The translations under genes and the position numbers were made by a program. Shown here in pieces: positions 61,101 through 64,000 of a stretch of DNA of 64,000 bases (the stretch's first letter is position 1; each line of letters begins with the position of its first letter). Source of the DNA: Haliotis cracherodii (Eukaryota). The stretch spans positions 27,900,001-27,964,000 of the forward strand of contig NW_027266271.1 in the NCBI RefSeq assembly GCF_022045235.1, in the 5' to 3' direction. The notes below the pieces were generated by a model. That model was given only the letters and a program-made list of their open reading frames with translations, was not told the origin of the DNA and did not search any database.

Positions 61101-63213
61101 ATACCTGAGTGTGATTCCCAGTATAGCTGATTCCCAGTATACCTGAGTGTGATTCCCAGTATACCTGAGTGTGATTCCCAGTATACCTGAGTGTGATTCC
61201 CAGTATATCTGAGTGTGATTCCCAGTATAGCTGATTCCCACTATACCTGAGTGTGATTCCCAGTGTATCTGAGTGTGATTCCCAGTATACCTGAGTGTTA
61301 TTCCCAGTGTATATCTGAGTGTTATTCCCAGTATACCTGAGTGTTATTCCCAGTGTATATGAGTGTTATTCCCAGTATACCTGAGTGTTATTCCCAGTAT
61401 ATCTGAGTGTTATTCCCAGTATACCTGAGTGTGATTCCCAGTATACCTGAGTGTTATTCCCAGTGTATATCTGAGTGTTATTCCAAGTATACCTGAGTGT
61501 TATTCCCAGTGTATATGAGTGTTATTCCCAGTATACCTGAGTGTTATTCCCAGTATACCTGAGTGTTATTCCCAGTATACCTGAGTGTTATTCCCAGTAT
61601 ACCTGAGTGTTATTCCCAGTATACCTGAGTGTTATTCCCAGTATATCTGAGTGTGAATGCTGTCAAACAACTGAAGTAAACATTCTGCCACCCTCTGGGC
61701 TCTTTCTCCAAAGCTCTTGTACTTCTTTCAAAATTCACTTAAGCAAATGTTTTGGGTGACAACTTCATGAATAATCAATTGAGAAACGGCAACAATTTTG
61801 AGTTGGGACTTATTTAACAACAATGAGTAATTGAAAGTGGTCTACCCACACGTTTAGGTTTCATGTTCTTTCTCATTAAACACATGCATCGATTTAGATG
61901 CACAGTTGTGTGGAGCAAGCTAGCTTGGTGGTGTCATGACAAGGCTACAGACTCACTGAGTAATGGAGTTTCATTCAGACTCGACACATACACGATCCAT
62001 CTCACACATAATTGATGCAGCTTTCTCTGCTGCACTGACATGTTTTCCTGGACAAGATTACACTTCTTTATGTATGTATTCATAGATGAACAATCTCTGT
62101 GAATACATGTTTTATTTAACCAAAGTGTTTTATTGTGCAAAACATACTAAAATATGTGGAAAAATAATGCCACTCCACTGAATGTCACCATGATCTGCAG
62201 ATCATAGCTATGGCGGCCATTTTGAAAATTGGAAATCGCATGTGAAACTTCATTAGTTCAGTTGTCTCTGGAAGGAAGGTGCACAATGAACAATGGCCAA
62301 CAAACCATGACATCTGCTCACTTAACTTCTCAGTCAGGTCAGCAATGCAATTAAAAAGTAAATAATTCCTTTTGGGAGCTATATTTGATCATTGTTATTG
62401 CACTCGGACCCTGTGATACTGCGACATTTATCATATAGCGGTATTTGTGATTTCCAGTGGTTCACAGGGACATGCACCCTAGTGGCTGTCCAAACTTGCA
62501 ACACAGTGGAACAATCAGATACACACATATACTGTAATGACAGTGTGAGATACAAACTTGCAACACAGTGGCACAATGAGATACACATTATACCATGGTT
62601 GCAGTATGGGCCACAGTGTGATGTACCGTATTTCCTCTATTAGACACCCAGTTTCTATTTATTTCAGACAAGCGTTTGACCCGGCGTCAATTAGAGGCCC
62701 GGCATCTATTGGAGGCCTGGCTTCTATTAATACCCCCATTTCACTATGACAACGAATGTCCCGAATCGTCACGAAATGGAAATATTTTGTGTTTGTTGAT
62801 ATCCGTAGATATATCTCAATCAATTGATCGACCCAGCATCTATTAGAGGCCCGGCTTCTATTTTTTGCACTGAACAATTGATCCGGCTTCTATTAGAGGC
62901 CTGGCGTCTAATAGAGGAAATACGGTATATCAGATAGGTACTTTTTCCACATAAATTACTTTACAGGATTTCAGACATGCCATTATAATTATTCTATTTC
63001 CCAGAATAATGCAGGCTGTGTTTCAGAAGAAGTAGAATGTTTTGCCTGATGCAAACTTATACCATAGTGACAGTAGCTGAAGCTTGGCTGATGATCATTA
63101 TCATATGTTCCAGACGGTTCAGACATGCCATGTGTCGTGTCCAGGGGAGTGTCTCTTGTCCAAATGGTCCCAGTGGAGTGAATGCCATATCAGCTGCCAA
63201 GATTTCAGTCACG
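22582..63213 (+). CDS. THSD7A: THSD7A/THSD7B-family gene (thrombospondin type-1 domain-containing protein 7), partial: 18 internal exons, about 1308 aa; 5' and 3' ends not located in window
   Basis: All 18 exons are flanked by AG/GT and phases match at every junction. The spliced protein is a colinear run of TSP1 repeats matching recalled THSD7A motifs ([34 protein letters not shown]...[40 protein letters not shown]). An invertebrate gene is probably a co-orthologue of THSD7A and THSD7B. Confidence 0.93.
23358..23622 (+). mobile_element. SINE-like family C, about 50 nt after the exon A donor
   Basis: Full family C body and (AAAC)n tail. Confidence 0.87.
24170..24385. repeat. 45-bp minisatellite, about 5 copies
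   Basis: TGTTGGCAGGGCAGTTTCTGCGTGTAGATGTCATGTGTTTGTTCT. Confidence 0.93.
24505..24892 (+). mobile_element. LINE 3' remnant (ORF2 C-terminal CCHC motif and tail; RTE-X-like)
   Basis: [29 protein letters not shown], then AATAAA-containing tail. Confidence 0.65.
25570..25812 (+). mobile_element. SINE-like family C
   Basis: GTGAAGATCCGGGTTAGAA head to (AAAC)n tail. Confidence 0.82.
26083..26283 (-). mobile_element. About 200-bp non-autonomous DNA element, TAG...CTA ends, 9-bp TSD
   Basis: TSD GCCTTCACA at 26074-26082 and 26284-26292; inverted homologue at 40982-41175. Confidence 0.85.
29166..29275. repeat. Imperfect hairpin (about 38-bp arms) at the end of a CpG-richer segment, probably a transposon end
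   Basis: CCGTGTAAAACAAACTTTATGA..GAATAGTTG / CAACTATTC..TCATAAAATTGGTTTTACACGG. Confidence 0.7.
30111..30372 (+). mobile_element. SINE-like family C with TSD
   Basis: TGCATTAATT on both flanks; (AACC)n tail. Confidence 0.87.
31375..31772. repeat. About 19-bp degenerate minisatellite
   Basis: TGTGTCAGG[A/G]TCTGCTGAT units. Confidence 0.9.
31915..32212 (+). mobile_element. SINE family B, degenerate, tail expanded to (ACTC)n(ACGC)n
   Basis: Homologous to 1946-2229. Confidence 0.8.
32598..32934. mobile_element. hAT-like MITE, best-preserved copy
   Basis: 13-bp TIR TAGGGCTGGGACG / CGTCCCAGCCCTA; degenerate 8-bp TSD GTTCAAAT / GTTAAATT. Confidence 0.8.
33093..33419 (-). mobile_element. SINE family D
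   Basis: Same orientation and sequence blocks as 40-352. Confidence 0.8.
33834..34305. repeat. Compound (TGTC/TGCC/TATG) microsatellite
   Basis: Low-complexity TGTCTG/TGCCTG array. Confidence 0.95.
37351..37632 (+). mobile_element. SINE family B, full length, 13-bp TSD
   Basis: TSD TCTTGTTGTGATC at 37338-37350 and 37633-37645. Confidence 0.92.
37902..38168 (+). CDS. THSD7A: THSD7 exon B (267 nt, phase 2/2)
   Basis: tttttcag|G TTT TGC ... AGA AG|gtatgg; [23 protein letters not shown]...GNGRPCP. Confidence 0.9.
39305..39411 (+). CDS. THSD7A: THSD7 exon C (107 nt, phase 2/1)
   Basis: ttgcag|G GCC AAG TGG ... GAC G|gtcagt; [35 protein letters not shown]. Confidence 0.92.
39449..39673 (+). mobile_element. 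SINE family B, old deleted copy with long (ACTC)n tail
   Basis: Patchy homology (TGTGCAGAG, AGAAACCTATG, GTTTGTCAGCACCATACCC, CTCCCACA). Confidence 0.7.
39963..40148 (+). CDS. THSD7A: THSD7 exon D (186 nt, phase 1/1)
   Basis: ttctag|AG GAG ... ACA G|gtagaa; [29 protein letters not shown]. Confidence 0.92.
40142..40724 (+). repeat. 49/50-bp minisatellite x12 containing the exon D splice donor
   Basis: ATCACAG|GTAGA at 40142, 40192, 40241, 40290, 40340, 40389, 40438, 40487, 40536, 40585, 40635 and 40684. Confidence 0.95.
40723..40927 (+). mobile_element. HINE/DINE-1-like (Helentron-associated) remnant
   Basis: (GTCT/GTCC)n microsatellite and short 3' hairpin TCATC-TTCT-GATGA. Confidence 0.55.
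40982..41175 (+). mobile_element. Second copy of the TAG...CTA element, 9-bp TSD
   Basis: TSD TGTCATAGG at 40973-40981 and 41176-41184. Confidence 0.85.
41458..41660 (+). CDS. THSD7A: THSD7 exon E (203 nt, phase 1/0)
   Basis: tttcag|GA AAA ... AGT GGG|gtgagt; [28 protein letters not shown]. Confidence 0.93.
42061..42167. repeat. 23-bp minisatellite, about 4.5 copies
   Basis: GGATGGGCAGAGATGGGATCATT. Confidence 0.92.
42288..42480 (+). CDS. THSD7A: THSD7 exon F (193 nt, phase 0/1)
   Basis: tttccag|GAG AGA ... AAA G|gtagga; [20 protein letters not shown]. Confidence 0.93.
42521..42928. mobile_element. Foldback element/MITE with about 150-bp TIRs containing tRNA-Arg-like sequence
   Basis: CTAGTGTAGC...GCTACACTAG ends; arms 42521-42678 and 42783-42928 are inverted copies. 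Confidence 0.85.
43475..43610 (+). mobile_element. HINE/Helentron-like 5' end
   Basis: TTTTAGCTCACCTGAC..TCAAGTGAG subterminal hairpin plus GTCCGTC; a reverse remnant lies at about 62200-62347. Confidence 0.6.
43749..43944 (+). CDS. THSD7A: THSD7 exon G (196 nt, phase 1/2)
   Basis: ttacag|AT GGT ... CGG AG|gtaatt; GQPC...[23 protein letters not shown]. Confidence 0.93.
43955..44165. repeat. About 57-bp degenerate minisatellite x4 just after the exon G donor
   Basis: GGCAGATCGGTTGATTGTTGGTGCCAGG repeats. Confidence 0.85.
44594..44715 (+). CDS. THSD7A: THSD7 exon H (122 nt, phase 2/1)
   Basis: ttacag|A TGT ... AGG G|gtaggt; [20 protein letters not shown]. Confidence 0.93.
45148..45357 (+). 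CDS. THSD7A: THSD7 exon I (210 nt, phase 1/1)
   Basis: ttctag|CA CGC ... CGG A|gtgagt; [36 protein letters not shown]. Confidence 0.93.
45797..45991 (+). CDS. THSD7A: THSD7 exon J (195 nt, phase 1/1; absent from ORF track)
   Basis: tcctag|AT ATC TCA TGT ... TTA G|gtaaca; NISCQHGNG...[36 protein letters not shown]. Confidence 0.92.
46140..46181. repeat. (ATG)n microsatellite
   Basis: About 13 ATG units. Confidence 0.95.
46255..46363. mobile_element. Small PIF/Harbinger-like MITE
   Basis: GGGCCCATTTCACAAAG / CTTGGTGGAATGGGGCCC imperfect TIRs. Confidence 0.55.
46470..46775 (+). CDS. THSD7A: THSD7 exon K (306 nt, phase 1/1)
   Basis: ttccag|GT GAT ... TCA G|gtagga; [14 protein letters not shown]...[12 protein letters not shown]. 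Confidence 0.93.
46901..47361. mobile_element. Non-autonomous element starting with a 133-bp imperfect palindrome (46901-47033)
   Basis: ATAATTTGTAGCAGGATCA..GTCCC / GGGATGC..TGATCCAGCTACAACGAATTAT; extent beyond the hairpin is uncertain. Confidence 0.55.
47511..47689 (+). CDS. THSD7A: THSD7 exon L (179 nt, phase 1/0)
   Basis: tcacag|AG TAC ... CGC AAG|gtaaac; [30 protein letters not shown]. Confidence 0.95.
48251..49165. mobile_element. CpG-rich DNA-transposon-like remnant
   Basis: GTACCGCG motifs near both ends; the first 90 bp recur, CpG-decayed, at 62402-62490. Confidence 0.5.
49170..49415 (-). mobile_element. SINE family D, degenerate
   Basis: CAGGGTAACAACAAGTACCATCT and other family D blocks. 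Confidence 0.75.
49662..49786 (+). CDS. THSD7A: THSD7 exon M (125 nt, phase 0/2; absent from ORF track)
   Basis: ttgcag|GAG ACC ... GTC AG|gtgagt; [35 protein letters not shown]. Confidence 0.92.
50147..50620. repeat. 78-bp minisatellite x6, derived from a reverse family C tail
   Basis: AATCTGTATAACAAAGTAAGTGTTGGTTACGTCACACTGTGCAGGCGTATTCCTGCCATGCGATGGTGGCCTGTAAAC. Confidence 0.93.
51571..51727 (+). CDS. THSD7A: THSD7 exon N (157 nt, phase 2/0)
   Basis: tctcag|A TGT AAG ... ACT CAG|gtcagt; [22 protein letters not shown]. Confidence 0.93.
52145..52715. repeat. 107-bp minisatellite x4 resolving into a 41-bp subunit array
   Basis: GTGTGAACTAGCTG at 52146, 52253, 52360 and 52467; then tandem TGATGACATCGTCTGGAATTATTTGAAACAGTATGATGTTG. 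Confidence 0.93.
52811..53086 (+). CDS. THSD7A: THSD7 exon O (276 nt, phase 0/0; contains RGD)
   Basis: ttacag|CCA TGT ... ACA AAA|gtgagt; [33 protein letters not shown]. Confidence 0.93.
53828..54085. repeat. 67-bp minisatellite x4
   Basis: ATAGAAGTGCAGG at 53828, 53895, 53962 and 54029. Confidence 0.93.
54439..54553 (+). CDS. THSD7A: THSD7 exon P (115 nt, phase 0/1)
   Basis: ttccag|ATC CAG ... CTT G|gtatgt; [27 protein letters not shown]; a second in-frame CAG lies 6 nt downstream. Confidence 0.92.
54634..54863. mobile_element. MITE with about 45-50-bp TIRs
   Basis: CTCTATAACATTATAGCCATAAATCCTTTATTTTGGCTG / CAACCAAAATACAGGATTTATGGCTATGATGTAATAGAG. Confidence 0.75.
55361..55430 (+). mobile_element. 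SINE family B 3' remnant abutting the exon Q acceptor
   Basis: AAGCTGACGTTCTGTGATATTATTGAAATACTGTTCAAAGCGGTGTAAGAC..CTCACTGACTC matches the tail at 2158-2229. Confidence 0.75.
55437..55702 (+). CDS. THSD7A: THSD7 exon Q (266 nt, phase 1/0; correct frame absent from ORF track)
   Basis: ttccag|GT GTT ... ATG AAG|gtgagt; [52 protein letters not shown]. Confidence 0.93.
57090..57225. other. Assembly gap (136 N)
   Basis: Run of N. Confidence 1.
60300..61655. repeat. 22-bp minisatellite, about 60 copies
   Basis: GAGTGT[G/T]ATTCCCAGTATA[C/T]CT. Confidence 0.97.
62624..62927. mobile_element. Tc1/mariner-pogo-type MITE, TA TSD
   Basis: TA-CCGTATTTCCTCTATTAGAC / GTCTAATAGAGGAAATACGG-TA; internal TATTAGAGGCCCGGC repeats. 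Confidence 0.88.
63114..63213 (+). CDS. THSD7A: THSD7 exon R (100 nt, phase 0/1)
   Basis: ttccag|ACG GTT ... CAC G|gtgagt; [33 protein letters not shown]. Confidence 0.92.

Positions 63214-64000: not shown

Follow-up and report, generated by a model that had tools for sequence, protein, structure and literature searches.

A SINE insertion at a splice donor of an abalone THSD7A-like gene is probably a chance landing aided by tail-target microhomology

Retrotransposons that insert at splicing-related sequences include NeSL, which targets spliced-leader genes, and Keno and Utopia, which target U2 genes, each having one fixed target. The single case described here, from the abalone Haliotis cracherodii, likewise concerns an insertion at or near a splicing-related sequence; in contrast to those fixed-target elements, the SINE involved has diverse target-site duplications (TSDs) and is dispersed in tens of thousands of copies. 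No published account of SINEs homing to splice donors was found in a literature search that covered few subscription journals. A parallel at a single locus is canine merle, where an antisense SINE-Cf lies at the PMEL intron 10/exon 11 boundary (available part of PMC7349775). Overlap between tail and target has published precedent in RTE-, CR1-, L2- and I-type retroposons (PMC6007223, section 18), and the SINEs published for Haliotis are MESC/Meta SINE Hdi or HalSINE1, and LP-SINE (accessible portions of PMC4758252 and PMC4824008).

The insertion lies at coding exon R (63114..63213, + strand; 100 nt, entered in phase 0 and left in phase 1) of a THSD7A-like thrombospondin-repeat gene in the window, i.e. 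the whole 64,000-nt stretch that was analysed. Residues ~1312-1344 of P0001 map to this exon with 98% identity over the exon, and a Pfam TSP1_spondin match falls below the cut-off (E 0.00079). The preceding exon (55437..55702, + strand) ends at the phase-0 donor AAG|GTGAGT. In run X13, from a related organism, an RNA contig joins exon R from 63213 to the next exon, whose acceptor lies 1016 nt beyond the end of the window, and an H. rufescens protein likewise joins the two, which confirms that exon R is spliced at this position. Mapping of P0001, with residues 1-35 (the first coding exon or exons) left out, yielded 18 donors in the window; two of the gene's donors were placed by eye. Seven of the 18 are GTGAGT (after 23305, 41659, 45357, 49786, 53086, 55702 and 63213), reproducing the count given in the initial annotation. 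G occupies position -1 in 15 of the 18 donors, while A|GTGAGT accounts for three of the seven GTGAGT donors.

The exon end and its donor are duplicated by a perfect 15-nt TSD, TCAGTCACGGTGAGT, whose copies (63205-63219 and 63385-63399) agree at 15/15 positions, lie 180 nt apart and enclose a tRNA-derived SINE in antisense orientation whose tail is (ACTC)n. The native donor is retained upstream of the insertion, with the full GTGAGT and exon context intact, in the first TSD copy (63205..63219, + strand), which comprises nine exonic nucleotides and the donor itself, with its GT at 63214. The SINE tail (63220..63239, - strand) has five units, one of them variant, and reads on the + strand as three GAGT units, one GAGG and a final GAGT. 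It runs on directly from the donor, as had been described, and adds four weaker GT sites (63218, 63222, 63226 and 63230, + strand). Body and head of the SINE occupy 63240..63384 (- strand). The second TSD copy (63385..63399, + strand) carries the duplicate donor, with its GT at 63394, after which the original intron resumes. The sequence also agrees with the earlier statements that this donor lies 180 nt downstream and that read-through of the native one (CAC GGT GAG TGA) ends at an in-frame TGA (63219..63221, + strand), which closes every donor from +8 onward.

Presence/absence polymorphism, one of the points raised at the outset, was found at this locus. The site is filled in the assembly and apparently also in a second sample (X2), and at least one other run under the same organism label (X6) has it empty, with a contig that resumes at the downstream TSD. 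In run X7 (organism B) the downstream flank had no coverage, so that this run is uninformative. Among the pieces listed for RNA runs X12 and X15, none spanned the junction. The filled allele appears to be tolerated, since it occurs in the assembly and apparently in X2, and the locus may be used as a presence/absence marker. The description of this SINE as young stands on the strength of a TSD without mismatches and of the empty allele, but draws no support from identity to the family: relative to the majority of 39 copies it carries 5 substitutions in 150 as well as a 7-nt deletion that is unique to this locus among the loci examined, and among the 40 of 2273 candidates that were scored the best other copies reach 93-94% identity.

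U1 duplex energies, computed against the U1 5' end encoded in this genome, are -10.2 kcal/mol for the native donor and -10.8 kcal/mol for the duplicate donor, a gap within the error of the method, and range from -6.5 to -5.1 kcal/mol for the tail GTs. The energy range of the gene's other donors serves as a guide only, one donor having been misplaced at 41681 (its true position is after 41659) and 45357 having been omitted. The tail does resemble the U1 5' end, as had been remarked, because both are complementary to GTRAGT, and nothing points to a function of this likeness.

These energies bear on the idea that, after a chance landing, an appreciable part of splicing in carriers uses the duplicate donor at 63394 or the tail GTs, with stop-containing transcripts, lower THSD7A-like output and perhaps tuning by tail length as corollaries. 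The original +7/+8 bases are still present at the duplicate donor, whose duplex is nominally the stronger, every alternative donor leads in silico to a premature stop, the locus is polymorphic, and the dog merle SINE shows the same layout, albeit at an acceptor (PMC7349775, available part). On the other hand, the allele is tolerated, the native donor retains its whole exon context, the tail GTs are much weaker than the native donor, and the difference in U1 energy is uninformative at this precision. Taken together with its corollaries, such leaky splicing is unlikely. The structural likeness itself is close: as far as the available account of merle goes (PMC7349775), both alleles are polymorphic and consist of an antisense tRNA-derived SINE whose 15-bp TSD doubles a splice site in use, and in both the tail acts as a splice signal or next to one. 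In contrast, merle involves an acceptor, a poly(T) tract and a demonstrated effect of tail length on splicing, whereas the present locus has a donor, a (GAGT)n tail and predicted effects only. By analogy, one can picture a segregating merle-like donor allele at which near-equal GTGAGT donors would compete, use of distal or tail sites would lead to decay and (GAGT)n slippage would tune the ratio; we regard this as slightly less probable again. If true, tunable donor alleles in abalone would arise repeatedly from (ACTC)n SINEs. With two near-equal donors, the locus offers a natural test of 5' splice-site competition.

The inserted element has the characters of a tRNA-derived SINE, namely a tRNA-like head, a 3' tandem-repeat tail, variable TSDs and a high, dispersed copy number. 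Its tRNA-like region (63308-63379, - strand) scores 26.2 bits against the Rfam tRNA model (E 0.0034), below the gathering score of 29. The element is about 165-172 nt long (165 nt at this locus), and 40 full and 59 partial copies were present in 58 evenly spaced 10-kb loci. Genome-wide, 25,910 heads were counted as exact matches to 17 nt of one head variant. TSDs were recovered in 55 of the 67 full-length copies and are mostly 11-13 nt long. According to the accessible portions of PMC4758252 and PMC4824008, mollusc MESC and LP-SINEs share the 3' tandem repeats and variable TSDs, and (CACT)n, similar to the (ACTC)n found here, forms the end of a Bathymodiolus MESC SINE. The Haliotis MESC/Meta SINE, described there as 327 bp long with a (CACCT)n end, is set apart from the present family by this description. 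A search by name gave no match, and the SINE motif had no matches in four of the five supplement files of PMC4758252; file 1, outside this search, may hold consensus sequences. As for a partner LINE, for which RTE- and Nimb/I-type elements were considered, an RVT_1 search recovered one young LINE family among the loci examined, ending in (AAGT)n, whose 3' end showed no match to that of the SINE (alignment score 20, shuffle mean 19.6). Local searches of the same loci recovered no LINE with an (ACTC)n tail.

Tail-target microhomology is at work in this SINE family. In unbiased copies the TSD start overlaps the tail by at least 1 nt in 38/42 cases (simple null 44%) and by at least 2 nt in 25/42 (null 15%, p 6e-11), so that the ACTC register first noticed at a few TSDs is general. 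Overlaps reaching 6 nt, as at this locus, occur in two of the 42 copies and represent the long end. That the effect is real follows also from its strand bias: GTGAGT lies 3-12 nt from the head in 267 rows on the priming strand versus 43 for the reverse hexamer (25,910 heads). TSDs start with T in 33/42 copies and vary past an initial T or TC. In the retroposons of PMC6007223 (available part), a 3' tandem tail likewise shares one to several bp with the start of the TSD, and TSDs starting with T and mostly 11-13 nt long are common to both. The RTE-type T stretch ~10 nt upstream of the TSD described in that source is absent here, with T fractions of 0.41, 0.27 and 0.39 at -11, -10 and -9 and no peak in a small sample of 49 copies. 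A TCA...TGA palindrome as the target, or a CTGA leader preceding the head, was rejected as ascertainment bias: the pattern was frequent in the best matches because the query contained the TSD, and it is absent from unbiased copies.

The initial annotation went further and proposed that the SINE/LINE system seeks GTGAGT donors, harmlessly since TSD and tail rebuild the donor. The clean insertion at this THSD7A-like exon, a second case at the GTAAGT donor of an ABC-transporter gene (locus L242) and the 6-fold strand bias of GTGAGT targets speak for it. However, only ~1% of heads (267/25,910) have GTGAGT in the target, and the non-donor register GAGTGA is as frequent (337 rows), with a ratio to GTGAGT that does not depart significantly from background (p 0.15). 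G at -1 is not enriched, at 21/267 rows (7.9%) versus 110/1054 (10.4%) in random DNA, or 78/336 (23%) once tails are masked, in a comparison that overlooks A|GTGAGT donors. AG|GTGAGT occurs in 2 rows versus 5 expected, and TSDs are diverse after the first T or TC. For G|GTGAGT, the 21 rows nominally exceed the 13.1 expected (p 0.027), but not after deduplication (p 0.25). G|GTRAGT amounts to 32 rows (p 0.052), 26 of them independent after removal of tandem duplicates, versus 23.4 expected (p 0.32). Among 30 of these 32 rows inspected, two were recognisable coding donors, compared to 1.6-8.2 expected under assumed intron numbers, and of 27 further GTGAGT targets none had an exonic appearance. 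Without annotation, exon calls were made by eye, a procedure to which UTR exons are invisible; Pfam missed the real L242 exon. Most copies are not in one motif, and no excess at donors over hexamer and microhomology frequency emerged, the outcome by which the initial annotation had said its proposal would fail, although without annotation a weak bias at true donors over matched non-donor sites is compatible with these counts and could be masked by purifying selection. Donor homing is thus not supported, being already largely refuted by the genome-wide counts, and we consider it highly improbable; it would have been a new targeting strategy.

Tail junctions were also inspected. AG|GTGAGT begins 100 of the 1340 B|GTGAGT junctions, and the base preceding GTGAGT, read by hand in the first 100 rows, was G in 32, C in 17 and T in 51. 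As host donors these AG|GTGAGT junctions were discarded, no host exon being recognised in 30/100 inspected. One inspected junction falls within a frame resembling a protease (Pfam E 0.043). Locus L198, coding in appearance, proved to be an older SINE remnant.

Since no genome-wide preference for splice signals was detected, the insertion at exon R is an ordinary event. Very probably, a common tRNA-derived SINE landed by chance on a true donor via target-primed reverse transcription. In this process its (ACUC)n tail is likely to have base-paired with the nicked GTGAGT, and the strong donor left in the upstream copy is the likely reason why the insertion persists; the same explanation holds, with equal confidence, that the family favours short tail-complementary sites, older (ACTC)n tails foremost, over donors. 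A LINE endonuclease would have nicked the sense strand of the gene within +2 to +6 of the intron, and the free 3' end, after pairing with the RNA tail, would have served as the primer for cDNA synthesis, as the family-wide overlaps suggest. In the 15-nt duplication, 9 nt are unambiguous and 6 nt are common with the tail. The last few donor bases were probably supplied by the tail, since family TSDs mostly measure 11-13 nt. Carriers would mostly splice at 63213; transcripts from the alternative donors are predicted to end prematurely. The locus is a tidy example of tail microhomology and survivorship. A side result concerns the sample of 27 GTGAGT targets, where 16, judged by eye, fell in older SINE tails or in (GAGT)n runs; within this sample, older SINE tails are the commonest GTGAGT targets of the family.

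The sequence TCAGTCACGGTGAGT is present twice in the window, at 63205-63219 and 63385-63399, and on the minus strand the 165 nt between the two copies comprise a tRNA-like head (Rfam tRNA match, 26.2 bits, E 0.0034), followed by a short body and then by an (ACTC)n tail. The upstream copy of this target-site duplication (TSD), on the plus strand, takes in the final 9 nt of exon R, which is 100 nt long, together with the GTGAGT donor of this exon. Compared with the majority of 39 copies, the inserted SINE carries 5 substitutions in 150 positions and a private 7-nt deletion. The insertion is real and polymorphic and lies on a splice donor that is in use; we consider it highly probable that ordinary microhomology and survivorship account for it.

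The host gene is THSD7A-like, with a large exon 98% identical to the Haliotis rufescens protein P0001, which marks the host as an abalone. P0001 maps to 18 exons within the window and one beyond it. This mapping bears out an earlier count of GTGAGT at seven of the 18 donors. Over the exon R junction P0001 reads CQDFSHDSTQNIG, a reading possible only if 63213 is spliced to an acceptor lying 1016 nt beyond the end of the window. The same splice is seen in X13, a putative RNA run of organism D from a non-carrier of the SINE, where one 4854-nt contig matches the insertion locus (L091) at 312-402 and then, after exactly 10 letters, from 2215. Protein and contig agree that exon R is spliced at 63213 and that the donor is real. 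Within the same gene, a 49-bp minisatellite (11.9 copies, 40142-40725) begins at an exon end, and each of its units contains a CAG|GTAGAA donor. An antisense copy of a longer SINE family with the same 3' end and (ACTC)n tail is found just past the window end (L031, ~670-945), in the same intron as the insertion, its end about 70 nt ahead of the next acceptor.

Presence or absence of the SINE was compared in eight of 17 sequencing runs. In X6, a DNA run labelled organism A, as are the runs that match best, a single contig covers L091 104-402 and then 585-1260 with two letters between and thus lacks the SINE together with one copy of the TSD, establishing the presence/absence polymorphism raised by the initial annotation. 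Contigs from X5 (organism A) and X10 (organism D), whose match begins exactly at L091 585 with non-SINE sequence upstream, fit the empty allele less directly than X6. In X2, another sample of organism A, the downstream contig stops 25 nt into the SINE head and its upstream counterpart 39 letters past 404, a weak indication of the filled allele as 25 letters fall below the 31-letter bar.

During insertion, the first nick would fall on the sense strand of the gene, inside the donor, in keeping with the geometry; the free end would pair with the SINE RNA tail, and the second nick would lie 9 nt inside the exon. A TSD reaching +6 would keep the whole donor without help from the tail, while a TSD of the usual 11-13 nt would place the nick at +2 to +4 and leave the remaining donor bases to the tail; the two routes yield identical, indistinguishable sequence. 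Pairing with the U1 5' end of this same genome amounts to -10.2 kcal/mol for the native donor, -10.8 for the duplicate donor and -6.5 to -5.1 for the tail GTs. In silico, splicing at +4 shifts the frame into a stop in the next exon, and every later donor takes in the TGA at 63219. Among known cases the dog merle allele comes closest: there the 15-bp TSD of an antisense SINE duplicates a splice acceptor (PMC7349775), whereas the present copy hits a donor. A leaky, merle-like splicing allele at exon R appears unlikely. U1 snRNA genes form a tandem array at G000:C6:9,319,493-9,348,408 in the scanned genome, with a period of 565 bp and more than 30 copies among the matches listed.

Ordinary microhomology can be gauged from the family as a whole. 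The 17-nt head motif has 25,910 exact matches in the genome, and evenly spaced sampled loci totalling 580 kb contain 40 full and 59 partial copies. TSDs are present in 55 of 67 full-length copies from loci not picked by flank; among the 42 copies with a readable tail register, 33 have TSDs of 11-13 nt and 33 have TSDs beginning with T. TSD and tail overlap by at least 1, 2 and 4 nt in 38, 25 and 5 of these 42, where a simple null predicts 44%, 15% and 1.5%, and the 6-nt overlap at exon R belongs to the long end of the distribution. The pattern matches the tail-target overlap of other retroposons as given in PMC6007223. Copies frequently insert at or within the (ACTC)n tails of older SINEs, giving tandem pairs (L171-L200). 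The Haliotis MESC SINE described in PMC4758252 and PMC4824008 differs in its greater length and its (CACCT)n end, so the (ACTC)n family is given no name here.

The initial annotation had further proposed that the SINE/LINE system homes to GTGAGT donors. Taking the sequence directly past an antisense head as the target copy, we counted 267 rows with GTGAGT at a distance of 3-12 nt, although 12 among the first 100 are repeat matches to a single head. ACTCAC, which is this hexamer on the strand that does not prime, gave 43. Complementarity to the tail therefore matters, and the suggested tail-target microhomology holds. GTGAGT exceeds its frequency in random DNA 4.7-fold when tails are masked and 1.5-fold when they are not, and the non-donor register GAGTGA gave 337 rows versus the 267. 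G occupies -1 in 21 of the 267 rows (7.9%) versus 15 of the 18 THSD7A-like donors; the background share is 10.4% without masking (p 0.25) and 23% with it (p 2e-7). G|GTRAGT occurs in 32 rows, or 26 once tandem duplicates are dropped, versus 23.4 expected (p 0.32 deduplicated, 0.052 undeduplicated). Among 30 of these 32, two sites are coding donors recognisable without gene annotation, with Pfam weak on short exons, UTR exons invisible and a single head variant counted; uniform insertion would give 1.6-8.2, assuming 100,000-250,000 introns, 15-30% of them with G|GTRAGT. Besides exon R, the second site is L242 (G000:C13 near 4,426,300, minus strand; also L299-L300), where an antisense copy with a 13-nt TSD over GTG|GTAAGT sits at the donor of an ABC-transporter exon (99 nt, phase 0), the neighbouring exons of which match ABC_tran and ABC2_membrane. 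Because three of the seven GTGAGT donors of the THSD7A-like gene have A at -1, the first 30 GTGAGT rows (27 sites) were also read by eye; no coding donors were seen among them, and by our reading 16 of the 27 targets are older SINE tails or (GAGT)n runs. These counts speak against homing, which we regard as very improbable, though a small donor bias could be masked by selection; no report of donor-homing SINEs was found in the literature searched.

No partner LINE of the (ACTC)n SINE was found; the 3' end of the SINE showed no significant alignment with the one young APE-RT-RNase H family examined. That very young family (L261-L298, e.g. G000:C2:42762706-42766461) has 1420 exact 3' ends and a ~1260-aa ORF with endonuclease, RT, RNase H and a C-terminal Cys/His motif. 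Its sense tail, (AAGT)n, is a run of GTAAGT donors, the reverse resembling the U1 core, so the SINE is not alone in having a donor-like tetranucleotide tail.
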